A stretch of 64,000 bases of DNA, taken from the NCBI GenBank assembly GCA_037441425.1, contig JBBISF010000005.1, forward strand, positions 6,529-70,528, written 5' to 3'. The notes beneath the pieces were generated by a model that did not search any database, was not told the origin of the DNA, and saw only the letters and a program-made list of their open reading frames with translations. A program made the translations under genes and the position numbers. Source of the DNA: Verrucomicrobiia bacterium (GTDB taxonomy: Bacteria > Verrucomicrobiota > Verrucomicrobiia > Palsa-1439). Shown piece after piece: positions 1-15,777 of the stretch (within the stretch, counting starts at the first letter, position 1; each line of letters starts with the position of its first letter).

Positions 1-66
1 CCCGCTATGAATACCCGCAAGATGAAATGCTGGTTTGCTGCAATCGAGATATGATAAAGTGCGTAT
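1..66 (+). promoter_or_regulatory. AT-richer leader upstream of the MTase gene; possible promoter
   Basis: GATATGATAAAGTGCGTATGTGATT lies immediately 5' of the ATG at 67 in otherwise GC-rich DNA. No consensus -35/-10 was confirmed. Confidence 0.2.
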
Positions 67-1008
67 GTGATTCCGCATCCGATCCAATATCAAGGCAGCA
101 AGCGCGGGTTGGCGCCGGTGATTCTGCGTTATCTGCCAGTGCAGATGGAACGGCTGGTCGAGCCGTTTGTAGGTTCGGCGGCGGTTTCGATAGCTTGCGC
201 CGCACGAGGACGCGCGAAGAATTACTGGCTGAATGACCTGAACAAACCGCTAGCGGAACTTATCGGGTTAATGATCAACCATCCTCAGGAGTTGACCCGC
301 TTCTACAAAGATCTCTGGGAGCAGCAACACGCCGACAGTTTAGAACATTATTACCGGGTGCGGGAAGACTTCAATCGGACCCGCAATCCCCAATTGCTGT
401 TGTATCTGTTGGCGCGGTGCGTCAAGGGGGCGGTGCGGTACAACGCGGAAGGACTGTTCAACCAAAGCCCGGACAAACGACGGCAGGGTACGCGACCAGA
501 GACAATGCGAGAAAATATTTATGGCGTATCAACGTTGCTGCGTGGACGCACAGTGGTTTCCTCGCTCGATTATCGCGATGTGCTGGCGAACGTCAGTCCT
601 AGTGACGTGGTGTACATGGATCCGCCGTATCAAGGAGTCTGCGGTGAGCGCGATTCACGGTACTATGCCGGGGTGATGTTTGACGATTTCGTTAATGAAC
701 TGGCGAAGCTGAATCGCTGCGGTATCCGGTATGCGGTCAGTTACGACGGACGGACCGGGACAAAGCGGTTCGGCAAGCCGATGCCGAAGGTGTTGGATTT
801 GACGCTCGTGGAATTGTCAGCCGGTCCCTCGACGCAGGCAACATTGCTGGGCCGTAAGGCGATCACCGTCGAATCGCTCTACCTCTCTGCGTCGTTGGCG
901 GAAGAAGCTGGTGCGGCGGAGCGGGTACATCGTCACAATGAAGTCGAACAACTCGTCTTAATGGAGTCACGCAAACCGTATGGCAAAATATCCAAAAGAA
1001 TTTCTTGA
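67..1008 (+). CDS. Dam-family (D12 class, alpha-group) N6-adenine DNA methyltransferase
   Basis: The N-terminal QYQGSKR motif is typical of the Dam/D12 family and the catalytic DPPY lies in VVYMDPPYQG. 313 aa. Local GC is lower than the surroundings. Confidence 0.85.
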   Translation: MIPHPIQYQGSKRGLAPVILRYLPVQMERLVEPFVGSAAVSIACAARGRAKNYWLNDLNKPLAELIGLMINHPQELTRFYKDLWEQQHADSLEHYYRVREDFNRTRNPQLLLYLLARCVKGAVRYNAEGLFNQSPDKRRQGTRPETMRENIYGVSTLLRGRTVVSSLDYRDVLANVSPSDVVYMDPPYQGVCGERDSRYYAGVMFDDFVNELAKLNRCGIRYAVSYDGRTGTKRFGKPMPKVLDLTLVELSAGPSTQATLLGRKAITVESLYLSASLAEEAGAAERVHRHNEVEQLVLMESRKPYGKISKRIS

Positions 1009-1708
1009 ATTGTGTCGTTCCGTGACCGGCAAGCGTGCCCGCACGGTCATTGACCACATCCTCAAGCACGGCCAAATCTCCACGGAAGAGCTCAAGACCA
1101 AGTATGGCTACAATCATCCGCCCCGTGCCGCACGTGATGTGAAAGAACACGGTATTCCCTTGGAGCGCGTTACCGTTGTCGGTTCTGACGGGAGGAAGAT
1201 TGCCGCTTACCGGTTTGCCGACCCGAGCAAGGTGAAGTTCCGACGCTTGGCTGGCCGGACAGGTTTGTCCAAGCAGATCAAGCAGGCCCTGATTCAGAAG
1301 TATGGCTGCCAATGCTTCATTTACTTGGAGGAGTTGCCAGAAGCCCAGCTCCAAATTGATCACCGAGTTCCATACGAAGTCGCTGGTGACGTGGGAGGCC
1401 AATCATCTCCCGATGACTTTATGCTGCTCTCCGGCTCCGCAAATCGTGCCAAATCGTGGTCATGCGAACACTGCGAGAACTGGCGGAATCTTAAGAAGCG
1501 TGAAGTCTGCCTCTCATGCTATTGGGCGTATCCGGAGGAATACTCACACATTGCCATGCAACCTGTCCGTCGCGTGGACTTGCTTTGGCAAGGTGAGGAA
1601 GTGGCTCAATACGATCAACTCAAGAAGGATGCCCGCACCGCCGGCATGCCAATTCCGCAATTTGTGAAGGACATTATCGAGCGCGCGGTCAAACGCGAGC
1701 AAGACTGA
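980..1708 (+). CDS. HNH-family endonuclease, putative Type II restriction enzyme partner of the MTase
   Basis: HNH core QIDHRVPYEV with flanking Cys pairs (GCQC ... CEHC ... CLSCYW) indicates a zinc-binding HNH. The start overlaps the MTase 3' end by 29 nt on the same strand. Confidence 0.7.
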   Translation: MAKYPKEFLELCRSVTGKRARTVIDHILKHGQISTEELKTKYGYNHPPRAARDVKEHGIPLERVTVVGSDGRKIAAYRFADPSKVKFRRLAGRTGLSKQIKQALIQKYGCQCFIYLEELPEAQLQIDHRVPYEVAGDVGGQSSPDDFMLLSGSANRAKSWSCEHCENWRNLKKREVCLSCYWAYPEEYSHIAMQPVRRVDLLWQGEEVAQYDQLKKDARTAGMPIPQFVKDIIERAVKREQD

Positions 1709-2483
1709 GGCTGGGTTGCGGGCCGGCACCGACGAGGAACAGCCGCGCCAGATTCAGCAGCGGCCGGTAGAGTTGGCCGGCGGAAACGCGGCACCGGTGG
1801 CTGACCATCCAGCGGTTGGCGGCGTCGAAATCTTCCACGCGCGGTGTGTGGTCGGCGACATCGGCAAATGCGCTGCGGAGGTGGGCGAGTTTCGACTGGG
1901 TGTCCGACCACTTGGCCCAGCGGGAGACCTTCTCGACGGTCGCCTTGAACAGCCGGTTGGGCAGGTTGTCCTCGGTGAACTCGTCAAAGGCCACGTCGAA
2001 CCGGTCGCGCCGCCAGCCGTCGGGCCGCCGGGCTTGGGCGGCGACGAGCCAGCGGCCTTTGAGCACGTCGAGCCGGTCTTCGATGGTCACGTACCCGCGC
2101 AACACTTCCCGGCGGACGGCCTCCCAAAGCCGGTGGGCGAAAATCCAGTAGAGGATTTCCGAGAGCCGCGCGCGTTGTTCGGTGAGCCGGGCGATTTCCG
2201 GTTCGGTGATTTCCAGTTTGCGCGTGTAGCTCAGGAGGAACAGCAGATTTGCCGTGGCCTCGCGTTCCGCCGTCGCCTCTTCCCGGTACGTCTTCGGTAG
2301 GACTTGCAGCGTGGCGGTCGGGAGTTGGACGATGCCGACGAATGAAGTCGCGCGTGTCTCCCGCCAGCCAACTTGGAACATCGGTTTTCCTGCCGGGCCA
2401 CGCAGCGTGTCTAGGACGCGCTTATCAATTTCCGGTAACGGCCTCGCGATGGCCTGATGTTCAAAAACAGTGACGGCCTTCAT
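1689..2483 (-). pseudogene. McrC-like N-terminal-domain protein, truncated (nuclease half absent)
   Basis: FDEFTEDNLPNRLFKATV resembles the E. coli McrC region FDMLNEDTLANRIIKSTL, recalled from memory. The ORF stops about 87 aa after this motif with no PD-(D/E)xK (D.KYY) motif. No mcrB is adjacent. The 3' end overlaps the HNH gene end convergently. Confidence 0.4.
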
Positions 2484-2566
2484 GCGTGCCGCCGAGTATG
2501 AGTCGTACCTGCCAGTAAATCAACGCGGCTTTATCCCCAACACCGGTCGCGATTGGGAAATCGCTC

Positions 2567-3634
2567 CTACGAGTTGCTGGCCGCCAGCCGGCGCTGATAA
2601 TCGTCCGCCATCAGCGATTCAATCATCTCGTCCAAATCACCGTTCATGATGGCCGGGAGGTTTTGGATCGTGAGGTTGATGCGGTGGTCGGTGACGCGGT
2701 TCTGCGGGAAATTGTAGGTGCGGATTTTTTCGCTGCGGTCGGCGGTGCCGATCTGGCTACGACGAGCGGCGGTCATCTTGGCTTGTTCTTCTTCCTGTTT
2801 GTGGACAAGCAATCGGGAACGCAGCACGCGCAGGGCTTTGGCCTTGTTTTTGATTTGGGAGCGCTCGTCGGCGCAACGCACGATCAGGCCGCTGGGCTTG
2901 TGGTGAATCTGGACGGCGCTGTCGGTAGTGTTCACGCCCTGACCGCCGGGGCCGCTGGCGCGGCAGACGGTGATCTCCATATCCTCGGTCTTGAGTTGGA
3001 TGTCCACTTCTTCAGCTTCCGGGAGGACGGCGACGCTGGCGGTGCTGGTGTGAACACGGCCTTGCGCTTCGGTTTCCGGCACGCGCTGCACGCGATGGAC
3101 GCCGGACTCGTAGCGCAGTTTCTTATAAACATCCTGGCCTTGGACGCTGAAGACGATTTCCTTGAAGCCGCCGCGTTCGCTGGGACTGGTGTCCATGACT
3201 TCGATCTTCCAACGCTGCGTGTCGGCAAACCGCGCATACATCCGGTAAAGATCAGCCGCGAACAGCGCGGCTTCCTCGCCGCCGGTGCCGGCGCGGATTT
3301 CGACAATCGTGTTGCGCGAATCGTGCGGATCGGGCGGCACGATGCCGAGCTGGATGTTCTTGGAAAGCCGGTCAGACTCTTTGCGCAACTCGTCGAGTTC
3401 GCTCTTCGCGAGTTCCGCCATGTCCGGGTCGGCGAGGAGTTGTTCGTTCTCGGCGATCTGTTTCTGGACGGTTTGCCAACGCGCGTCGTCGGCCAGCGCC
3501 TGGTTCAGGCGTTGGAGTTCCCGAGCCAGTTCGCCGGCGCGCCGCTGGTCGGCGTACACCGCCGGATTGGCGAGCTCGTTCTGCAGCTCGGCCACCCGGT
3601 GGCGGAACTTTTCGATGGAGGGCGCAAAGTCCAT
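2567..3634 (-). CDS. prfA: peptide chain release factor 1
   Basis: GGQ motif (SGPGGQGVNTTDSAV) and RF1-type sequence throughout. The likely start is the internal ATG at 3634 (MDFAPSIEKF...); the ORF track extends to 3679. Confidence 0.95.
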   Translation of the reverse strand: MDFAPSIEKFRHRVAELQNELANPAVYADQRRAGELARELQRLNQALADDARWQTVQKQIAENEQLLADPDMAELAKSELDELRKESDRLSKNIQLGIVPPDPHDSRNTIVEIRAGTGGEEAALFAADLYRMYARFADTQRWKIEVMDTSPSERGGFKEIVFSVQGQDVYKKLRYESGVHRVQRVPETEAQGRVHTSTASVAVLPEAEEVDIQLKTEDMEITVCRASGPGGQGVNTTDSAVQIHHKPSGLIVRCADERSQIKNKAKALRVLRSRLLVHKQEEEQAKMTAARRSQIGTADRSEKIRTYNFPQNRVTDHRINLTIQNLPAIMNGDLDEMIESLMADDYQRRLAASNS

Positions 3635-3682
3635 AAAGACAAAACGGGCGCAAGCGGAAATGCCTGCGCCCGTCAGCAAACC

Positions 3683-3889
3683 CTACTTCGCCTTCTTCGC
3701 GTACCGCTTCTGGAAGCGCTCGACGCGGCCGGCGGTGTCCACGTACTTCGCCTGCCCCGTGAAAAACGGGTGACAACGTGAGCAGATGCCGACGTGCATA
3801 TCTTTCTTGGTGGAACGCGTCTTGATCACATTGCCGCACGCGCAATGGATGATCGACTCCACATATTCCGGATGAATCTTCGCTTTCAT
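3683..3889 (-). CDS. rpmE: 50S ribosomal protein L31
   Basis: MKAKIHPEY... with CxxC...CxxCHPFFTG zinc-ribbon motifs. rpmE-prfA arrangement. Start taken at the ATG at 3889. Confidence 0.9.
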
Positions 3890-3959
3890 GAGTAAATCCC
3901 TAAAAGGCGCGACACAGTACAAGCCAAGTCTTGCGGTTGCAAGCTGATTTTACTACCTC

Positions 3960-6054: not shown

Positions 6055-6417
6055 GTGGCCATGCTGCAAATTATTTTCAGTCCGGTGGGCGCCAAGGAAC
6101 TGGCGGCCATGCCGAAGAAACTGCAATTGGAATTGATTGACGGTTTTCAGTTGTTGCCGCGCGATTTCGAGAAGGCGGACGCGCATTTTGGTCAACTCAC
6201 GCGCGGTGGGAAAAAAGTCTATCGCTACCGGGTGAAGGACTACCGCATTTATTTCGACAAGGACGGCGACATGATCAATGTCCGGTGTGTTCTCAACAAG
6301 AACTCATTGAAGGATTTCTTTTACCGCTCGAAGCTGCCAATTTCCGAAGACCAACTCCTCCAGGAAAATCCCAAGTTCTGGGAGTTACTGGAGTCCAGCG
6401 CTACAGCGCCTTCGTAA
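6055..6417 (+). CDS. RelE/ParE-like toxin-fold protein (putative, orphan)
   Basis: The pattern IIFSPVGAKELAAMPKKLQ...GKKVYRYRVKDYRIYFDKDGDMINVRCVLNKN matches the RelE/ParE layout (...yRlRvgdyRiiY...v.il.i...). It has a roughly 30-aa C-terminal extension, no antitoxin ORF nearby, and lower GC (about 50%). Confidence 0.35.
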   Translation: MAMLQIIFSPVGAKELAAMPKKLQLELIDGFQLLPRDFEKADAHFGQLTRGGKKVYRYRVKDYRIYFDKDGDMINVRCVLNKNSLKDFFYRSKLPISEDQLLQENPKFWELLESSATAPS

Positions 6418-9400
6418 ACTCCGGCACGAGTTCGTACAAGTCCCCCACCAGCGGAATCACCTTGGGCCGTGCGCGGCGTTGATTCAGCGTCAGCAACGGC
6501 GCGTCGGCATCCTTGTTGAAGGCGATGATCAGCGCCCGTTCCCCGAGGTAATCCACGTGCTGCGGCGCACCGCTGACGCCAAGCGAGATGATCAACTTGG
6601 GATTCACCGCCGTGCCGGTTTGACCGATTTGACGGTCGGGCGTGAGCAGCTTGAGATCTTCCACCACCTTGCGTGTCCCGCCAATCATCACGTTCTGCAC
6701 TCCGATCTTTTCGAGGCGGTCCTTCAGGGGCAAAACGATCAAATCAAAATTCTCCCGGTTCCGGATGGCGTAACCGACATCAATGATCACATCCGCATCA
6801 GCCATCATGAGCGAACGCGCGCGCGCTTCCGCCTGTTTGGGCGGGGGGACGTATTCCAAGTCCAGCGGCACGCGGCAGACGCGTTTTGGCGCGACGGTCT
6901 TGTGCTGACTGCCGGCCGTAAACGTCGCCACCAGCGGATGTTCCTGGACGTTACCGATGGCGAACACGCGGTGCACGTTCCCGCCGAATACCGGCACGGC
7001 CAGTTCATGGTGCGCGATTGCCGCCACATTGTACCGGGCCTGCACGCGCGGGAACGTGCTCGCAAATTGCGCGAACACCTCATTCGCCCACGTCCCGCTG
7101 GCGAGCAGGGACGGCAACGTGTCCTTCCACAGGTATTGGGCGGCGGCGAGCACGCCTTCGGGCGAATCGTCGCGCAATTGCGCGTGCGTACAAAAGAACA
7201 CGGACGCCGCCGCCAGCCGTCCGGCCAATTCCCGGATCTGCTTCTCGTCAGGGTCGCCCACCACCACCACGTGAAACGGCAAACCCAAAGCGGCCGCACA
7301 TTCAGCGGCGGTTTCTGCGCCGTCGCAGTTGCCCGGTGTCGCCACGAACACCGCTGCGGCGCGCGCCGGCACAACTGATTGGTCTGCCGCCTCAATTTTG
7401 CCAGTATATTGCGCGTCGCCATCCGGGCCGGACGATTCCACCCCCGTCAACGCCCGTACCAACTTTGCCGCTGCGGCCGGCGTGGCGACGGTTGGTTGCT
7501 CCCCGGCCGTGACTGCCGGCAAAATAAGACGTGACGGGAACTTCGCGCTGGCGATTATTTGCGCGCTGGGAATGATCTCCAATGGTTTCGACTGAGCCGC
7601 GCAGAAGTCATCGACCGAGAAATTGTTGGCAGCGGTTGCTTCGGTGATGGCGCGGACCGGAGGCAGCCCGCCCAGATTGCTGTTCAAGATGGTGCAGAAC
7701 AGTGCCTCCCCGCATAACACCAAATCACATGAGGGCAGGTGCACGGCGATGTGATCGGCAATCAGTCGAGCAGTCGCATGGATGTCCTCTGGCAGGTCGT
7801 CGGCTTCCAGCAGCACGGCATCGGTTGCGCCGGCGGCCAGCGCGCGGCGGAGAAGTTCGGCGGCATAACGCGGTGCGACGGTCAGGATGGTGAGGCGGAC
7901 GGGTCGTCGCGACAGGCTTGTCGGGACTCCCACATCAAGCTCGAAGTGTGTCTCCAGTAGCTCGCCCTCCACCACGCGCGGTCGCGGTGAAAGAGCCGGC
8001 ACGACGTTGGCGACAACGACAATGTGTTGGGCCGGGGGTAGGATTGCCGGTTGCGGAGCGAGTGCCGGTTTATGTTCTGCTTCCTGCAGCGCGAGCATCG
8101 CAACACGGATTTCGGGTGGGTACAGACCTTGTTTGAGCAGCGCGCAGTCGCGGTCGAACTCGGAGAGGAGGCGCTGGATTTCCCGTTGAGCGCAATCGCA
8201 ATACCGGTCATAGGCCACTTCAGCCAATTGCCGGTGGGGGCTGTCCACAGCGGTCGTATTCTTCGTCAGCCATTGGGTGCGCCACCGGGCGGAATCCATG
8301 GCCTTCAGGTAGCCGGCCATTTCGGCGAGTTTGAACATCGCGGGTTGGAAATTCGCGTTTTGCCAGACTTGTTGACCGAAGGTTTCAACGGCTTGCCGGA
8401 GGCGATCAATCAGCGGGCTGGATTCCTTGGCGTTCGGAAGTGCTTTGTCCACGAGATCGCGCAGAATGAGAAACCGCTGCACTTCGTTCGTGCCTTCGTA
8501 AATGTTCAGCACCCGGGCGTCACGCCGGTGTTTTTCCAGTTCGTGCAATTGGGTGCCGCCTTCCAACCCGTAAATATTCTCCGCGGCCCGAATGACCCGG
8601 TGCAGAACTTCGCTGGCGTAGTATTTGCCGATGGCCGACTCGGTGCGGACGCTCTTCGTGTCGTGATGGTCGAACCGGCCAATCAACTCATACGCGAGCG
8701 ATTCAGTCGCGTAATGCTCGATGGTCATTTCGCCGACGAGTTGCTGGATGTGCGGTTCGTTCTCCAAGCCGCGTTCCCTTACGAATTGCCGGGTTTGCTC
8801 GATGATCTTGGCGGTCATCGCCGCGGCGCTGACGCAGAGGCCGGTGCGCCCGACGTTGAGGGTTTCCAGCGCGTTGACTTGGCCCCGGCCTTCGATGCCG
8901 ATGATGTTTTCCCGTGGGACGCGGACTCCGTTGAGGCTGAGTTCGTTGGTGGGCGAACCGCGCTGGCCCATCTTTTCTTCGTCGCGACCGACCTTCAGCC
9001 CTTCGGAATTGCGGCGGACAAGGAAACCGGTTGGGCCTTCTTTCGTGCGTGCGTACAAGCAAAACACGCCGGCCACGTGGCCGTTGGTGATCCACATCTT
9101 GGCGCCATTGAGTTCGTAGTACTCGTAGAATTCCCGGCCGCCTTCCTTCCGGATCTGCGCGATGTCGGCATCCGGTAGGTTGGCTATGTCCACGGTCGCC
9201 GCGTCCACGATGCCGCGGCGCTCTGTGCCGAGCCGGAAATACTTCGAGCCGTCAGAATTTGTGAAGACTTCGGCGCGCTTCAATTCGGCCCGGGTCTGAA
9301 TGCCACCGGAATCACTGCCGGCACTCGGCTCAGTCAGGGCAAAGGCGCTGATCTGACCGGCACTGATTAAACGCAGGAAGAATTTCGCGGCTTCTGCCCG

Positions 9401-12400
9401 GCGGTCGAGTTCGGCGATGACCATTTCCGCGCGCGGGCGTACGGTGTCCAATGCCGGCCCGCACGCCTGTAGCTCCGCTTTGAACTTCGGCAAGTCCATC
9501 CGCAGTCCAGCCCGTCCGGCATCCATGAAGTGCGTCAGAAATTCGCTCGCAATGGCGCGGAGCATCGGTTTCTTCCCGATGTCAGTTTTCACTTTTTTGC
9601 CGAGCGCGGTGAACGCGTCTTTGACTTTGAGCGCCGCCGGAGATTCGAGCATCCGCAGGAGATTGTGGATTGTGGATTTTAGATTTTGGATCAGGCCGGC
9701 CGCGGCGAGAAACTCTTGGAGGTCAGCTTCGGCGCGCGGCAAGTCTTGGTTCAGGCCGAGGAGGATGGGGGTTGTCCCGATGCTGGAGTGCGCCATGATG
9801 GTGAGCGCGTAACTCGGGTCGGCATACCGCATCGAAAGCGGGCAGAGGATGTAGTAATGGGCCTTGAGCAAGCCGGCGCCGCCGAACTCCTTCGGGATGT
9901 ACATGCGGGTGAAGCCGTGCGCGACCATGTCGTGAACGTCTGCAAGCGGGACTTGGTGGAGACGCTCGACGAGCCGGTAATATTTTTCGCCGGGGCGATA
10001 GACATAGCGCTCGGTGAAATGCCGGTAGAGTTGGTCGTGATAGGCGCGGAGTTCGGGGTCGGCGTGGAGCATTTCCGGAACGTAACGCCACGTCACCGGG
10101 TCGAAGGGCTTGGTAAGAAAATCGCCGTAGTCATAGGGATTGGGTTGGGCGAGTTCAGAGCGGTAGGAGAATGGGGGCGGGGATTGAAGTGGCTGTTCGA
10201 GGAGGTAGCCGCGGGTCAGGACGGTAGAGCCGAGTTCCGCGAGGTCGCGGCGCTGAGGCTGCGCCCACGTTTTGGTTTTCAGCAACTTGATGATTTCGAA
10301 ATCGAGTTCGGTCTGAGGTTCGGACGCGAGCGTCGGCGCACCGGCTGAAGGTTCTTCGTCGTCGAACAGCAAACGTGAGAAGACAACGCTGTCGCGATAG
10401 AACTTGGAGAAGATGTCGTCTTCGCTGTAGGCGCTGCCGCCGATGATTTGGCCGGCGTTGTACGCGAGCGTGAAGAAAGCTTCGCGGGGGTTGGCGGCAT
10501 TGTGACGGAGCTGCCAGACCTGCGCTTCCATTTCGCTGAGCATCTGTTTGACAGCGCCGAACTTGGCGATGCCATCGTGAGCGTCTTCGTCTTGGAACAG
10601 GCCGGGGAATTGGACGCGGCTCCGCGCGTGTTGCCGGCAGCGTTCCAATAACATTTCGCCGGCGCCGCGGACAATAGCGCGGCAATCGGCGGTCAGCGCG
10701 ACCGGGAACTCGCGGGCGTGGCGGCGGGCGGTGTTGAGGCCGATCCATTCGACGTCGGCCAAGTCTGGGCGGGCGGTGATTTGGGCGTGGGCGATGCCGG
10801 AGACGAGGAGCGCGAGCGAGACGTCGCGCGCGGCGAGGGCGCGGAGAATGTCCGGTGTGGGCTGAAGAGACTTGAGAAAGGCGAGTTGGTCGGCGGTGAG
10901 GCGCGCGCCGCGTTCGAGGTCTTTGATGGATTGTTTGGTGAAGTGGTGCTCAATTCCGGATTCGGTTGTGAGGTCCTTCGCTTCGCTCAGGAAGACCGAT
11001 GGGGAAGGGGCGAGGTGTTTCTGTACCTCCGCTTCCGCCCAGAAGAACTTGCCGGCTTTGGCATAAGCGAGGGCGCGGTCACAACCGGAATCTTCCAGCA
11101 GGGAGAGCAGCCATTGGCGCCGGCCGGTGTCGAGGTAGCGCGGGCCGGAATGGATCGAAGTGCAAAACTGCTGCAACTTCTCGTGGGAGCGGCGTCCCCG
11201 CCGCGATTCGGGGACCTGTCGCGGCGGGGATGCCGCTCCCACCATACCGGAGTTTAGAACCGCCAGCAGCTTGCGGTTAGCCGGTGTGGGCGAACTGAAG
11301 ACCAAACGCTGTTCGCGGTGCCGGGTCCAGTCCACGTCAGCAGGGGCGGCGCGCCAGCAGGTTTCGCATTTGATGCAGTTCTCGAAGTGCACCACGATCT
11401 GCACTTGGCCGAGATCGTCGGTGTGTTGCTCGTACACTTTGGCGGGACAGACGTGCCACAATGGTGAGTCGGCGAGTTTGCGGCGATCTTCAAAATGCTC
11501 GGGACGCTGCACTTTGATATGGCTGGTCTTCTCGGAGGAATACCGGATGAGGGAAAGTTTTTCTTCGATCGGCTGCGCGAGCGGGACGGCGTCGAGATTG
11601 GCGCGTTGCCGGACGAGGGCGAGGGTGCGTTGGTAGAAGGAGGACAGGTATTTTTCGGGGGAGGGTCGGGTGACGAGCAGCCCGATCATTTCGCAAAGCC
11701 ATTGGAAAGGCGCGAGCAGCGCCGTGAGGAAGGGCCACCCGCCGAGCGACCAGGGGCGCGGGGCGGAACGCAAGGCGTGGCGCAGCTTGACCGGCAAAGG
11801 CGTATCGTCATTGCGATAAGGGTGATCGCAAGCGGAACGCAGACGGGACGCGAGCTTCTGAAAACGGGGTTGGCCGTTGATGGAAATGGAGACTGCGCCG
11901 GCGTGTCGGAGTGCTGGCGCGCGTGAGGAACCGGCGCGCTGGAGACCGAGGGCGGCGCGTTGTTGCCGCAGGTCGCGGAAGAATTCGCCCCAGCGTTTGG
12001 GCGGGAGCGTTTCGCGGAGGAACTTGGCTTGTTGCCAGAGTTTCTGGCCGGGGCGGAGATCGGGATGCGTGGCGATATGCAGCGCGCCGCAGGCGAGATC
12101 GGCGGCGCGGCCGAAGAAGACGCGCGTGTGGGCGACGTAGTGCGGCCAGTCTTGGAGGAATTCGACGTTCTGGAAATAGTGCGTTTGCCGGAGCGGCTTT
12201 TCGTAGAGTTCGGTGAGATGTTCCCGGCGGAAATCGCCGTGGGCTTGTCGGACGGCTTGGGCGAACAGGCGGCCCATCGCGGTGGCGGGACCGGTATAGT
12301 TGGGGAATGGGAAATCGAGGCCGATGCCGGTGCACGCCCCGCCGAGCGCGAGACCGTGGTCGACGAGTTGGGGGAGTTCCCGGAAGCCGCCGCCGCGGAT

Positions 12401-13255
12401 GAGCTTCGCGCCGTAGGCAACGGCGCGTCCGCCGCCGGTGAGGCGTTGGATTTCCGGCAGCGATTTGAACCACTCCATCAGCCGGTTGTGATCGCCTTTG
12501 AATTCGCGCGCGAGGTTGTCGAGCGGCATCACGAGGCCCAGCGAGAGGCTGGAATGGTTGGTGTAGATGAACCCGCCCATGTTGAGTTGCAGCTTGCCGG
12601 GATTGCGCAGGATGATTTCGTAAGCCGCGCCTTCACCCGGCGGAAGGGCAAACCGGGATTCGATTTCGGCAGGATCGAGTTCGATGACTTCTTTGATGCC
12701 TTGAAGAAAATGGGGGGTGTTGTTCGGGCAGCGTTCGTAGCCTTCCTTGGTGACGAGATGCGAGGCGTCGCCTTCAGCGAGAAAGACAACGGCGGCGTAA
12801 ATCGGGCCACGCGTGGTGTGGACGCCGATCACTTTGCCGGCCGAGTCGCGCAGCAAGCCGGTCGCGGTGGTTTCGGTGAGGATGGTGGCGCCGAAAGATT
12901 TGGCCAGTTCGGCAAGATAATGGTCGTATGTCGGACGGAGAACGGTGTAGCAATGCCGGAAGGTGTCGGGGTTGTGATAGGTCAGGCCGACGAGTGTGTG
13001 GCCGTTGTAGAGATGGATACCGCGTTTGGTGACGGGCCGTTCCCAAGCGGATGCACGAACCGCTTCCTCGCCGAGCACGTCCGGCTGGGCGAGGTTCTCG
13101 GTGAAATAGACGGCGCCCGACCAGTTCTCCGCGCCGGGGAATTTGCCGGCTTCGAGAACGAGGACGGGAATCTGCGCTTTGGCGAGAGCGATGGCGGCGG
13201 TGATCCCGGCGGGGCCAGCGCCAACGATGACAACATCGTATTTCCAATCGGCCAT
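6401..13255 (-). CDS. 2301-aa multidomain flavoprotein fusing ETF:quinone oxidoreductase (FAD plus 4Fe-4S), acyl-CoA dehydrogenase, ETF-beta (FixA-like) and ETF-alpha (FixB-like) domains
   Basis: Residue numbers follow the track ORF starting at 13306. The likely start is the ATG at 13255 (MADWKYDVVIVGAGPAGITAA, a dinucleotide-binding motif). ETF-QO covers about residues 18-670 and ends with the 4Fe-4S signature WHVCPAKVYE...NCIKCETC. The ACAD core covers about residues 1080-1620 (FALTEPSAGSDSGG; MWITNGHVAGVFCLYART; VLNIYEGTNEVQRFLILRDL). ETF-beta-like covers about 1760-1960 (HIVVVANVVP...DLVLCGEALF). ETF-alpha covers about 1975-2301 (ISLGVSGAPQHVDYLGERALIIAFNKDADAP...VGDLYELVPEF). One frame with no stop across 6.9 kb. 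Confidence 0.85.
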   Translation of the reverse strand: MADWKYDVVIVGAGPAGITAAIALAKAQIPVLVLEAGKFPGAENWSGAVYFTENLAQPDVLGEEAVRASAWERPVTKRGIHLYNGHTLVGLTYHNPDTFRHCYTVLRPTYDHYLAELAKSFGATILTETTATGLLRDSAGKVIGVHTTRGPIYAAVVFLAEGDASHLVTKEGYERCPNNTPHFLQGIKEVIELDPAEIESRFALPPGEGAAYEIILRNPGKLQLNMGGFIYTNHSSLSLGLVMPLDNLAREFKGDHNRLMEWFKSLPEIQRLTGGGRAVAYGAKLIRGGGFRELPQLVDHGLALGGACTGIGLDFPFPNYTGPATAMGRLFAQAVRQAHGDFRREHLTELYEKPLRQTHYFQNVEFLQDWPHYVAHTRVFFGRAADLACGALHIATHPDLRPGQKLWQQAKFLRETLPPKRWGEFFRDLRQQRAALGLQRAGSSRAPALRHAGAVSISINGQPRFQKLASRLRSACDHPYRNDDTPLPVKLRHALRSAPRPWSLGGWPFLTALLAPFQWLCEMIGLLVTRPSPEKYLSSFYQRTLALVRQRANLDAVPLAQPIEEKLSLIRYSSEKTSHIKVQRPEHFEDRRKLADSPLWHVCPAKVYEQHTDDLGQVQIVVHFENCIKCETCWRAAPADVDWTRHREQRLVFSSPTPANRKLLAVLNSGMVGAASPPRQVPESRRGRRSHEKLQQFCTSIHSGPRYLDTGRRQWLLSLLEDSGCDRALAYAKAGKFFWAEAEVQKHLAPSPSVFLSEAKDLTTESGIEHHFTKQSIKDLERGARLTADQLAFLKSLQPTPDILRALAARDVSLALLVSGIAHAQITARPDLADVEWIGLNTARRHAREFPVALTADCRAIVRGAGEMLLERCRQHARSRVQFPGLFQDEDAHDGIAKFGAVKQMLSEMEAQVWQLRHNAANPREAFFTLAYNAGQIIGGSAYSEDDIFSKFYRDSVVFSRLLFDDEEPSAGAPTLASEPQTELDFEIIKLLKTKTWAQPQRRDLAELGSTVLTRGYLLEQPLQSPPPFSYRSELAQPNPYDYGDFLTKPFDPVTWRYVPEMLHADPELRAYHDQLYRHFTERYVYRPGEKYYRLVERLHQVPLADVHDMVAHGFTRMYIPKEFGGAGLLKAHYYILCPLSMRYADPSYALTIMAHSSIGTTPILLGLNQDLPRAEADLQEFLAAAGLIQNLKSTIHNLLRMLESPAALKVKDAFTALGKKVKTDIGKKPMLRAIASEFLTHFMDAGRAGLRMDLPKFKAELQACGPALDTVRPRAEMVIAELDRRAEAAKFFLRLISAGQISAFALTEPSAGSDSGGIQTRAELKRAEVFTNSDGSKYFRLGTERRGIVDAATVDIANLPDADIAQIRKEGGREFYEYYELNGAKMWITNGHVAGVFCLYARTKEGPTGFLVRRNSEGLKVGRDEEKMGQRGSPTNELSLNGVRVPRENIIGIEGRGQVNALETLNVGRTGLCVSAAAMTAKIIEQTRQFVRERGLENEPHIQQLVGEMTIEHYATESLAYELIGRFDHHDTKSVRTESAIGKYYASEVLHRVIRAAENIYGLEGGTQLHELEKHRRDARVLNIYEGTNEVQRFLILRDLVDKALPNAKESSPLIDRLRQAVETFGQQVWQNANFQPAMFKLAEMAGYLKAMDSARWRTQWLTKNTTAVDSPHRQLAEVAYDRYCDCAQREIQRLLSEFDRDCALLKQGLYPPEIRVAMLALQEAEHKPALAPQPAILPPAQHIVVVANVVPALSPRPRVVEGELLETHFELDVGVPTSLSRRPVRLTILTVAPRYAAELLRRALAAGATDAVLLEADDLPEDIHATARLIADHIAVHLPSCDLVLCGEALFCTILNSNLGGLPPVRAITEATAANNFSVDDFCAAQSKPLEIIPSAQIIASAKFPSRLILPAVTAGEQPTVATPAAAAKLVRALTGVESSGPDGDAQYTGKIEAADQSVVPARAAAVFVATPGNCDGAETAAECAAALGLPFHVVVVGDPDEKQIRELAGRLAAASVFFCTHAQLRDDSPEGVLAAAQYLWKDTLPSLLASGTWANEVFAQFASTFPRVQARYNVAAIAHHELAVPVFGGNVHRVFAIGNVQEHPLVATFTAGSQHKTVAPKRVCRVPLDLEYVPPPKQAEARARSLMMADADVIIDVGYAIRNRENFDLIVLPLKDRLEKIGVQNVMIGGTRKVVEDLKLLTPDRQIGQTGTAVNPKLIISLGVSGAPQHVDYLGERALIIAFNKDADAPLLTLNQRRARPKVIPLVGDLYELVPEFTKAL

Positions 13256-13292
13256 CGAAAGGAATATAGTTCGCGGTGAGAGGAGAACAAAG

Positions 13293-14726
13293 ATGAAATT
13301 TTTCAAATGGATGGCGGTGCTGTTGCTGGCAGCAGTCGTGGCGCGTGCCGCGGAGAACCAAGACGAAGGCGTGGCGCTGACGATTTACAACCAGAACTTT
13401 GGCGTGGTGCGGGAGAAACGTAACGTCGAAGTGCCGGATAAACTGGGCGCGATCCGGTTCGGCGACGTGGCGGCGCAGATTGACGGCACGAGCGTGCAGT
13501 TCAAGTCGTTGACCGATCCGACGGCGACGGTGCTGGAACAGAACTACGAATACGACCTCGTCTCCGCTGACAAGCTCTTGCAGAAGTACATTGATAAGCA
13601 GATCACGGTGTTGACCAAGGATGGTTCACGGTATTCCGGTAATCTGTTGAGCTTCGATGGAAATCAACTGGTCATCCGGCAGTTTGGTGAGAAGGGCGAT
13701 CTGGTGATGGTCCAGCGCGGCGACAACGTGAAAGACATCGAGTTCGGTGCATTACCGGAAGGACTAATCACCAAGCCAACGCTGGTGTGGAAGCTGGCGA
13801 CGGAGAAGCCCGGCAAGCAGTTGATCGAGGTGGCCTATCAGACGGGCGGCCTGAATTGGTATGCCGACTACAATGCCGTGTTGAATGCGAAGGATACGCA
13901 GATGGATTTTGCCGGTTGGGTGACGATTGAGAACAAGTCGGGAGCGACTTACAAGGATGCACGGCTAAAGCTCATTGCCGGAGATGTGCGTCGGGTGCAA
14001 CCGATGGCACAGGGCACGATGCCGTTGAAAATGGCGCTATCGGAGGCAGCTCCTGCGCCCGGTTTCGAGGAAAAGGCATTCTTTGAATATCACCTCTACA
14101 CGTTGCAGCGGGCAACAACGGTTGCCGAGAACCAGACGAAGCAGATTGAGTTGTTGAAGACGGCGGATGTGCCGGTGAAGAAGGTTTACCTTTACGATGG
14201 TGCACCGCAGTTTAGGTTTTACGGTGGACTGAATACCAACGCCGGCTACGGCAGTGAGGAGTCGAACAAGAAGGTCAACGTCATCATCGAGGTTAAGAAT
14301 TCCCAGGAAAATCACATGGGCATGGCGTTGCCAAAGGGGAAGGTCCGGCTTTACAAACGCGACGAGGCGGATAAATCACTGGAGTTCATCGGTGAGGATG
14401 AGATTGATCACACGCCCAAAGACGAGACGATCAAGCTGCATGTTGGCGATGCGTTTGACGTGGTCGGGGAGCGGAAGCGCACCGACTTCAAAGTGGACAA
14501 CGCCGCCCACTGGATGACCGAGAGCTTCGAGATTCGCGGTCGCAATCACAAGGATGAGCCGGTCGAAGTGCTGGTCAAGGAGACGTTGTACCGGTGGAAT
14601 AACTGGGAGATCACCCAGGCCAGCCACAAGTGGACGAAATTCGATTCCAACACGATTCACTTCCCGGTGAAAGTCGACAAGGACGGCGAACAGGTCATCA
14701 CCTACACGGTCCGATACACGTGGTAA
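13293..14726 (+). CDS. secreted DUF4139/DUF4140-like protein (paralog 1 of 4)
   Basis: Signal peptide MKFFKWMAVLLLAAVVARA with AGGAGA 7 nt upstream of the ATG at 13293. It shares the architecture and motifs of the paralogs at 53478, 55765 and 56933 (TIYN..., ...GGLNWYADY..., C-terminal ...TVRYTW). The track ORF extends upstream to 13143. Confidence 0.75.
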   Translation: MKFFKWMAVLLLAAVVARAAENQDEGVALTIYNQNFGVVREKRNVEVPDKLGAIRFGDVAAQIDGTSVQFKSLTDPTATVLEQNYEYDLVSADKLLQKYIDKQITVLTKDGSRYSGNLLSFDGNQLVIRQFGEKGDLVMVQRGDNVKDIEFGALPEGLITKPTLVWKLATEKPGKQLIEVAYQTGGLNWYADYNAVLNAKDTQMDFAGWVTIENKSGATYKDARLKLIAGDVRRVQPMAQGTMPLKMALSEAAPAPGFEEKAFFEYHLYTLQRATTVAENQTKQIELLKTADVPVKKVYLYDGAPQFRFYGGLNTNAGYGSEESNKKVNVIIEVKNSQENHMGMALPKGKVRLYKRDEADKSLEFIGEDEIDHTPKDETIKLHVGDAFDVVGERKRTDFKVDNAAHWMTESFEIRGRNHKDEPVEVLVKETLYRWNNWEITQASHKWTKFDSNTIHFPVKVDKDGEQVITYTVRYTW

Positions 14727-15049
14727 ACGAATCGCTCAATAATCCATTTGTACGGCTTTCCGGTGAGGGTTTGCCGGCCGGGCCGGTGTCCAAACCAGCT
14801 AAACTGGGTCGGGTGGTGCTGCGGCGTGAGACCGCCCACCGCGGCGGCAAAACGGTTGTGGTGGTTTACGATTTCGCCGCACACGTTCCGATCGCCAAGA
14901 TTGAAGAGTATGCGAGTCAACTCAAGAAGACTTGCGGCTGTGGTGGCACGGTGAAGGGCCGCGAGATCGAGATTCAAGGTGATCAACCCGGCAAGATTCG
15001 GGCACTGCTCGAAGCGGAGGGGTTTCAAGTGGCCGGCGTGCGCTCATGA
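14720..15049 (+). CDS. yciH: translation initiation factor SUI1/YciH family
   Basis: LKKTCGCGGTVKGREIEIQGDQPGKIRALLEAEGFQVAG matches the SUI1 core (KKCGCGGAVKDG.IEIQGD). A GTG start at 14720 gives 109 aa, the YciH-like length, and overlaps the upstream gene by 7 nt. Confidence 0.75.
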   Translation: MVNESLNNPFVRLSGEGLPAGPVSKPAKLGRVVLRRETAHRGGKTVVVVYDFAAHVPIAKIEEYASQLKKTCGCGGTVKGREIEIQGDQPGKIRALLEAEGFQVAGVRS

Positions 15050-15777
15050 ACGCCCGGTGTCTGCAAGGCGACGCGACTTTGGCAACAACCTGGTCGGCAG
15101 CGCTGAGCACTGAGCGGGCCGCGGCACTGATTACCGACCCGCCGTATTGCTTGCTGACCCGGCGGCGCAAAGATGGTGATTTGCGCGATCCGAAAGGTCG
15201 CAAGCTCGACGCCGGGCCGGTCCGACGATTCGAAACCGTGCGCGATTACCGTGCGTTCACCCGGGCGTGGATGACACACGCCGTCCGTTGGGTGACGGAG
15301 CAAGCGCCACTGGTGATTTGGAGTAACCTGTTGGGCAAAGAACCAATCACCACAACCGCACGCGAACTCGGCTGGACGTATTGCCGGGGAGAGTTCATCT
15401 GGGGAAAACGCACGCGCGAGGGGAACTCCGGTGAAGAAATCCTTCGAGTGGTGGAAACGGCGTTGGTGTTTACGCGCACCCCGGCACCAAGTCCGACCGT
15501 TGCCGACGCCGCGCCGCCGTGGTCAGTCGTTGCCGGTTACGATGACGACGGCGAGGGCGCACGGTGGGGCAATCACCCCAATCACAAGCCATTCCGGGTG
15601 CTCGAACCGTTGATCCGGACCTGGAGTCGTCCCGGTGATTTGATTGTTGATCCCTTTGCCGGCAGCGGTTCAATACCGGTTGCCGCCGTGCGCTTGAACC
15701 GGCGCGCCGTCAGCTTTGAGCTTGAGGCCGAATGGGCCGCGCGGACGAACAAACGATTGGCGCAGACGCCTGTCTGA
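15046..15777 (+). CDS. beta-class DNA methyltransferase (N6-adenine or N4-cytosine), no cognate nuclease nearby
   Basis: Motif IV ALITDPPY sits near the N-terminus and motif I DLIVDPFAGSGS near the C-terminus, the beta-class order. 243 aa. The ATG overlaps the yciH stop (ATGA at 15046-15049). Confidence 0.75.
   Translation: MNARCLQGDATLATTWSAALSTERAAALITDPPYCLLTRRRKDGDLRDPKGRKLDAGPVRRFETVRDYRAFTRAWMTHAVRWVTEQAPLVIWSNLLGKEPITTTARELGWTYCRGEFIWGKRTREGNSGEEILRVVETALVFTRTPAPSPTVADAAPPWSVVAGYDDDGEGARWGNHPNHKPFRVLEPLIRTWSRPGDLIVDPFAGSGSIPVAAVRLNRRAVSFELEAEWAARTNKRLAQTPV

Follow-up and report, generated by a model that had tools for sequence, protein, structure and literature searches.

A low-GC D12 methyltransferase and HNH nuclease gene pair, probably a Type II restriction-modification cassette, abuts a truncated mcrC in a Verrucomicrobiia bacterium

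Our analysis of a 64,000-nucleotide (nt) stretch of DNA from a Verrucomicrobiia bacterium (contig JBBISF010000005.1 of GenBank assembly GCA_037441425.1, positions 6,529 to 70,528; hereafter the window) concerns two overlapping genes at its left end, one for a DNA methyltransferase (M) and one for an HNH-type nuclease (R). We consider it very probable that the pair is a horizontally acquired and probably active restriction-modification (R-M) cassette of the orthodox Type II kind, judging from its predicted proteins, its relatives and its base composition. Alone, the cassette matters little, adding one more uncharacterised Type II system to a catalogued family. It is distinguished by a nuclease whose canonical HNH zinc site appears to have been exchanged for another module and which has no solved relative, and by a junction, precise to the base, with a decapitated mcrC gene.

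The gene pair and its relatives

The M gene (67-1008, forward strand) starts with GTG and encodes 313 amino acids (aa); an earlier start is not possible because of an in-frame stop at 55-57. The R gene (980-1708, same strand) starts with ATG and encodes a putative Type II restriction endonuclease of 242 aa, and its 5′ end lies under the 3′ end of M in a 29-nt overlap (980-1008). This is the arrangement described in an earlier reading made from the letters of the DNA (hereafter the sequence-only reading), and the methyltransferase motifs that it quoted are where they should be: QYQGSKR at aa 7-13 (nt 85-105) and DPPY at aa 185-188 (nt 619-630), with FVGSAA at aa 34-39 (nt 166-183).

The methyltransferase matches Pfam PF02086 (D12) at 7.8e-35 (121.2 bits; cutoff 22) and the dam subfamily model TIGR00571 at 120.2 bits (cutoff 114.85), and we classify it from these profiles and motifs as a predicted alpha-class, D12/Dam-family N6-adenine DNA methyltransferase. 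Its 7536 homologues include closest relatives that are likewise 313 aa long. Solved relatives matched by the protein are T4 Dam, E. coli Dam and DpnM (PDB 1yfj, 2g1p, 2dpm), with which it has in common the fold family and the motif order (xYxGxK, FxGxG-like, DPPY). It differs from them in that identity is low, the alignment extends over aa 6-225 only, and the C-terminal 90-100 aa are family-specific. The Dam equivalog NF008152 is not reached (69.4 bits versus a cutoff of 441), and because the score lies so far below that cutoff, GATC specificity should not be assumed.

Both proteins align over almost their whole length with a pair of PADLOC profiles for Type II systems. The nuclease matches the restriction endonuclease profile REase_II PDLC03566 at 8e-55 (profile positions 23-225 of 235), and the methyltransferase matches the methyltransferase profile MTase_II PDLC03341 at 6.6e-71 (positions 15-303 of 316). 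Since these matches run nearly end to end, the catalogued Type II systems already include this gene pair; the profiles name neither a prototype enzyme nor its site, so they give no specificity to carry over. Type II systems that combine an HNH nuclease with a Dam-family methyltransferase are well known (PMC2441816).

The two genes also travel together elsewhere. They were located by tblastn in 80 metagenome loci and in 19 viral contigs from IMG/VR, and a homologous D12 methyltransferase is directly adjacent to the nuclease homologue in 90 of the 92 loci that could be evaluated. In the metagenome set it lies directly upstream on the same strand in 73 of 80 loci (six of the other seven are clipped by a contig end), and most of these 73 tandem pairs overlap or nearly abut. 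The viral or proviral nuclease homologues (L105-L123) are 41-63% identical to ours; 17 of the 19 loci have an adjacent methyltransferase, in tandem in 10 and convergent in 7. Because these contigs carry both genes, phages are a plausible vehicle for the family. Three plasmids (from Bacteroidota, Aeromonadales and Enterobacterales) also pair a Dam-family methyltransferase with a nuclease homologue, which is 38-53% identical to the window protein. The M and R homologues are in tandem on Hymenobacter pHsw3 and convergent on a 5.1-kb Aeromonas plasmid and on an Arsenophonus plasmid; on the Aeromonas plasmid, a small helix-turn-helix (HTH) regulator gene, controller-like, overlaps the start of the nuclease gene. 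One of the two loci that have no adjacent methyltransferase (L100) carries an ISL3-family transposase (2527-3912, reverse strand) in the methyltransferase's usual place, directly upstream of the nuclease homologue.

The overlapped pair of 313 aa and 242 aa recurs in three long contigs (L005, L006 and L009; for example at 7088-8029 and 8001-8729), where the homologues are 85-88% identical and the neighbourhoods unrelated: a RecD2-like helicase and a TRAM-domain gene, transketolase fragments and a GAF histidine kinase, or gyrA within an R-M cluster. Between cassette copies, the ratio of nonsynonymous to synonymous substitution rates (dN/dS) is 0.04-0.08 for the methyltransferase and 0.03-0.07 for the nuclease, which indicates strong purifying selection on each. 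The linkage, the plasmid pairings, the recurrent copies and this selection together argue that the pair is a Type II R-M system and that the nuclease is not of the homing or colicin kind. The Type II assignment made by the sequence-only reading is therefore borne out by the two profile matches and by the adjacency of the two genes. That reading had also named a match of the HNH protein to a non-restriction family, such as homing or colicin-type nucleases, as something that would speak against it; the match found, near end to end, is to a Type II restriction endonuclease profile.

The base composition of the cassette is foreign to the window, in which all our comparisons of composition were made. 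The GC content of 52-1708 is 54.7%, against 64.8% in the adjoining 1709-2483 and 60.4% in the rest of the window (standard deviation 1.7% among windows of the same size), a comparison possible on the right flank only, as just 66 nt of the window precede the M start. None of 1213 same-size windows elsewhere is as low in GC as the cassette (minimum 55.1%). GC at third codon positions (GC3) is 0.61-0.63 in the M and R genes and 0.78 in the neighbouring mcrC remnant and prfA. The segment at 241-360, which had been put at about 50% GC as an example of the lower GC of this region, is at 48.3%.

The nuclease, its probable action and rival readings

The nuclease belongs to a large family, with 6422 matches among clusters at 90% identity (the best 120 all share more than 70% identity with the window protein) and 680 matching clusters at the 50% level (E<=1e-3). 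NCBI records give its homologues no name other than 'HNH endonuclease' or 'hypothetical protein', and defence inventories built on such names therefore overlook these nucleases. We aligned 67 members, down to 33% identity. Sixteen positions are invariant in this alignment and all are present in the window protein: R19, D53, L124, D127, H128, P131, G136, R156, K158, C162, C165, N167, C177, C180, P185 and H190. Position N155 changes to Q only, in distant members. The motifs LQIDH (containing D127-H128) and SANRAKS (containing N155) are accompanied by several cysteines.

Assignment to the HNH group comes through distant relatives. Four of them pass the cutoff of the Pfam HNH model PF01844 (up to 30 bits versus 21.4), and the segment matched in these proteins maps to aa 112-160 of the window nuclease. 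Canonical members read CxxC...DH...LCxSCNRxK. In the subfamily of the window protein the corresponding residues are C112-x-x-Y115 and L-S151-G-S-A154-N155-R-A-K158; the catalytic D-H, N and basic residues are retained despite the loss of zinc cysteines. Just past the catalytic helix lies a different set of four cysteines, C162, C165, C177 and C180 (nt 1463-1519), which is invariant (the Cys4 module). Searches of PDB sequences and profiles returned weak, insignificant matches of this segment to RanBP2-type zinc ribbons (E 0.2-0.8). On the evidence of this alignment, a distinct Cys4 module appears to have taken the place of the usual HNH zinc site in this family. The label 'HNH/zinc-finger' given to this protein earlier thus stands for the HNH core. 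It does not stand for the canonical zinc site, whose cysteines are mostly gone, and the conserved cysteines belong to the separate module.

A structure model was built with AlphaFold2. With 29 close homologues the HNH part had a predicted local distance difference test score (pLDDT) of 30-40, and the 67-sequence alignment was used instead, giving a mean pLDDT of 90.7. The model contains a winged HTH domain (aa 1-87, nt 980-1240), an HNH beta-beta-alpha core (aa 110-160, nt 1307-1459) bearing D127-H128, N155, R156 and K158, and a C-terminal beta-alpha-alpha tail (aa 195-242, nt 1562-1705). The beta-beta-alpha unit is formed by strands 124-128 and 147-151 and helix 152-163 (pLDDT >90), the Cys4 part is made of short helices, and the C-terminus has an extended segment followed by two long helices (205-220 and 225-241). 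Foldseek matches are at the level of domains: winged helices of TFE/TFIIE-alpha and MarR-like proteins, and the HNH domains of the Gme HNH nickase (4h9d) and Cas9. In BFVD the best match is a phage HNHc protein (3e-4). Ribbon-helix-helix models are matched by the C-terminal tail in a few cases (RHH_5 in 2 of 67 members; RHH_4 at E=0.21), a faint sign that this tail could be a ribbon-helix-helix dimerisation module.

Among known HNH Type II enzymes (SphI, KpnI, Hpy99I and PacI), the window nuclease shares the character of a small His-Me enzyme and is here paired with an adenine methyltransferase. SphI has a predicted HTH plus His-Me architecture (group 28; PMC5714182), and by this description, the basis of our comparison, it is like the window protein, which is about 240 aa long with an HTH-type domain before the His-Me core. 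Neither Hpy99I nor PacI gave a PDB match to the window nuclease at E<=1e-3. In contrast to these enzymes, the window protein has an additional invariant Cys4 module and the C-terminal beta-alpha-alpha tail, and its zinc cysteines are mostly lost. The NlaIII/IceA family, which recognizes CATG, was considered and rejected, as neither the window nuclease nor any of the 67 members matches PF05315. Since the family is large and highly conserved across phyla and is without a solved structure, a structure together with a recognition site would be informative.

We looked for that site in the avoidance of short palindromes. Among A-containing palindromes in the window none is outstanding (observed/expected ratio 0.79 for GATC and 0.82 for CATG; GCATGC 4 observed versus 9.5 expected). 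A pooled test compared 337 kb of flanks of R-M-bearing loci with 292 kb of controls. The largest difference for a 4-mer was found for GTAC, with a ratio of 0.64 in flanks versus 0.86 in controls and 47 of 51 loci below expectation. GTAC is a lead only, because palindromes are depleted generally and the flanks and controls differ in taxonomy. The sequence-only reading had held that specificity cannot be read from the sequence, and the window and pooled-flank statistics agree with it.

Several of our results weigh against an intact, acquired Type II system. The palindrome statistics just described yield no decisive site, either in the window or in the 337 kb of pooled flanks. The window nuclease reaches no Pfam HNH model, its Pfam result being a sub-threshold winged-helix match (HTH_39) alone, and of the four cysteines of the canonical HNH zinc site it has lost three and keeps C112 alone. 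No solved structure matches the nuclease at E<=1e-3 by sequence, profile or Foldseek search. The window also holds the right flank of the cassette only, its left end lying outside.

Two of these points would be expected if the locus were a relic, in which the methyltransferase persists as an orphan with a regulatory or protective role and the HNH protein is catalytically dead without its zinc cysteines. The window nuclease does have Y, S and A for the canonical C115, C151 and C154, and it lacks a direct Pfam HNH match. Set against this, the cysteine-less form is the majority in a family of thousands in which D127, H128, R156, K158, the Cys4 set and H190 are invariant. The nuclease open reading frame (ORF) is of full length, its dN/dS of 0.03-0.07 is that of a protein under strong constraint, and the methyltransferase remains linked to it in 90 of 92 loci. 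We therefore regard a relic as quite unlikely. Still less likely, in our view, is that the HNH protein serves homing or phage packaging, accompanies a phage-type Dam methylase without being its functional partner, and does not restrict DNA in a methylation-sensitive way. The occurrence of homologues on 19 IMG/VR viral contigs, the phage HNHc and HTH proteins that head the Foldseek matches in BFVD, and the NCBI names of the homologues, which do not mention restriction, all fit such a nuclease. However, the structural matches are at the domain level only (template modelling score about 0.25), the match to a Type II restriction endonuclease profile is full length, and chromosomal and plasmid contexts show no terminase and no intron or intein host gene nearby. 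Tandem and convergent M-R layouts are kept, and one plasmid has a regulator resembling a C protein.

For the Type II system that we favour, we predict the following mode of action. M would be transcribed from the conserved leader at 21-66 (forward strand), which is kept upstream of the methyltransferase gene and may hold its promoter. No Shine-Dalgarno sequence was seen before the M GTG at 67, so that a short or leaderless M 5′ end is possible. Scans of 1-2700 for repeats, promoters and terminators gave nothing above chance. The methyltransferase would move the methyl group of S-adenosylmethionine to the N6 of adenine in a short site and so mark host DNA as self. Translation of R is probably coupled to that of M, and lower, because R starts within the last 29 nt of M and has GGAG upstream (962-965, 14 nt before the R ATG). 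The window contains no HTH controller gene of the C-protein type, unlike the Aeromonas plasmid. Coupled, lower R expression is the usual route by which systems without a C protein put protection before restriction. The nuclease would read the same site as the methyltransferase by means of its winged helix and possibly its Cys4 module, and would cut by a one-metal His-Me mechanism in which H128 acts as the general base and N155 binds the metal. It is probably a dimer, perhaps held together by the C-terminal tail, so that both strands would be cut. Unmethylated incoming DNA would thereby be cleaved and methylated host DNA spared.

The junction with a truncated mcrC

The cassette lies immediately downstream of prfA (2567-3679, followed by rpmE), where it replaces or interrupts the 3′ part of an mcrC gene. 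The mcrC remnant (1689-2483, reverse strand) is a 264-aa ORF convergent to the cassette, and prfA is on its far side. The remnant matches Pfam McrBC at 7.2e-35 over profile positions 2-198 of 318 only. A scan of species-representative genomes found McrC relatives, 60-72% identical, in Lentisphaerae, Verrucomicrobiae and other metagenome-assembled genomes. One of these, in L015 (10001-11302), is an intact McrC of 433 aa that covers the full profile (1-318). The window ORF aligns with it without gaps at 72% identity over residues 1-258 and then ends. The missing part of McrC is its C-terminal PD-(D/E)xK nuclease, which in L015 is the VPDIRF...VDTKYK segment past residue 258. In this way the resident Type IV system, presumably of the McrC/EVE-McrB kind, has lost its nuclease domain.

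The position of the junction can be given to the base. The codon for McrC residue S258 is at 1710-1712 and the TGA of the nuclease gene ends at 1708; the last six codons and the stop of the mcrC ORF come from the antisense strand of the R gene end. Homology to other cassette copies stops at 1702-1708. Because McrC homology and cassette homology both end here, the right end of the foreign DNA is fixed at 1708/1709, with mcrC-derived DNA from 1709, and GC content steps from 0.54 to 0.65 at the same place. The least probable of the alternatives is that the low-GC cassette and the truncated mcrC were brought together artificially, by assembly or binning. This would suit the abruptness of that step and the metagenome-type assembly of the window, but it is argued against by a separately assembled Logan contig that spans the junction (L001, 1540 bp, run SRR11582168; 100% identical to window 581-2120) and by the mcrC ORF, which reads over the junction to a stop six codons on, as a real fusion would. 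The horizontal acquisition proposed in the sequence-only reading is supported by foreign GC and GC3; the truncated mcrC beside the cassette is a feature absent from that reading. We infer that the event was recent, since the remnant keeps its open frame and a host-like GC3, and the GC of the cassette shows no amelioration.

Intact McrC relatives are found with a partner. In L015 (10001-13896) and L012 (9845-13374), mcrC is followed by an overlapping gene for a protein of 706-903 aa with EVE and AAA_5 domains, which by its domains we take to be an EVE-McrB. The window ORF corresponds to the N-terminal domain of the McrC of such systems, and differs from the intact ones in having residues 1-258 of 433 only. 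No mcrB is present in the window, where the mcrC remnant is flanked by prfA and the R-M cassette. The gene order of these relatives, mcrC and then mcrB, is the reverse of that in E. coli. Pairing of mcrC with an EVE-McrB is the commonest defence architecture of EVE domains (PMC7641849).

A YTH-fused McrB has been reported to bind DNA containing N6-methyladenine (m6A), and for many YTH-like domains of prokaryotes the distinction from EVE domains is difficult (PMC7641849). With this in mind, we considered whether the arrival of the cassette and the loss of mcrC were a single selected event, in which the resident EVE/YTH-like McrB would recognize the new m6A. If so, only recipients whose mcrC was destroyed by the cassette could have kept it, and the locus would be a footprint, at single-base resolution, of conflict between a Type II and a Type IV system. 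We give this idea a low probability, because plain turnover of a defence island would account for the observations just as well; both the presence of R-M cassettes in such islands and McrBC gene decay are documented (PMC2614495). The base-precise mcrC junction is a clean natural case of defence-island turnover, and it could serve to test whether EVE-McrBC systems attack m6A-modified DNA.

Cassette ends, repeats and other features of the window

The left part of the cassette can be followed in its closest copies. Window 21-457 aligns to L124 (ENA ERZ18644181) 1405-1841 at 85.7%, and window ~22-66 aligns to both copies of a repeat in L009. Because the leader at 21-66 is still homologous to these copies, the cassette must reach beyond the window start. 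The gene ends were considered as defined mobile ends and rejected. DNA homology does stop at 52-66 and 1702-1708, but this is no proof of mobile ends, because synonymous divergence (dS) between copies is 0.66 to saturated and neutral flanks could not be aligned in any case. The one true boundary is that with mcrC, at 1708/1709.

Repeated pieces of the leader and of the methyltransferase 5′ end occur in several loci. In L124 (1-1841), the nuclease gene is followed by a GC-rich spacer of ~370 bp with repeated CCGCC-N3-GGCGG hairpins, past which the leader and the first 130 methyltransferase codons recur, perhaps through a tandem duplication or as part of a ~2.06-kb circle. In L009, a direct repeat of ~105 bp flanks the cassette (7024-7128 and 8871-8975; also seen in L010) and consists of the cassette leader and the first 13 methyltransferase codons. 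The second of these copies runs in frame into the 5′ end of another D12 methyltransferase gene, whose partner is a SacI_N-like nuclease. In L056 (1824-1937), stray methyltransferase codons 2-39 lie 860 bp upstream of the full gene. These three loci hint at recombination at the methyltransferase 5′ end, and one possibility is that the cassette spreads or is amplified via its leader and the methyltransferase 5′ end, as tandem copies or as a ~2-kb circle.

Two of the copies have notable surroundings. L009 (1-11038) is a dense R-M cluster around gyrA, in the order N6_N4 methyltransferase with a CfrBI-like restriction endonuclease, an 85-aa gyrA fragment, an MvaI/BcnI-like gene with an HNH_2 gene, full gyrA, the cassette, and the D12 methyltransferase with the SacI-like restriction endonuclease. 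In L006 (3891-6924), just upstream of the cassette, a DUF433 gene and then a 114-aa ORF stand between a 673-aa transketolase gene and a separate 132-aa C-terminal fragment of transketolase, which points to a further small insertion or duplication at this locus.

Elsewhere in the window there is a second methyltransferase gene (15046-15777, forward strand), encoding a 243-aa N6_N4_Mtase protein (PF01555, 2.3e-19; PADLOC MTase_II, 8.9e-25). It is located just downstream of the second-lowest-GC stretch of the window (~13.0-15.0 kb, ~55%). A 139-aa ORF without a PADLOC match (14630-15049, forward strand) overlaps its start by 4 nt. On the reverse strand, an ORF of 2301 aa (6401-13306) combines ETF-QO-like FAD and 4Fe-4S domains, a full acyl-CoA dehydrogenase (N, M and C parts) and an ETF-alpha FAD domain, and is predicted from these domains to be an unusually large electron-transfer-chain fusion.

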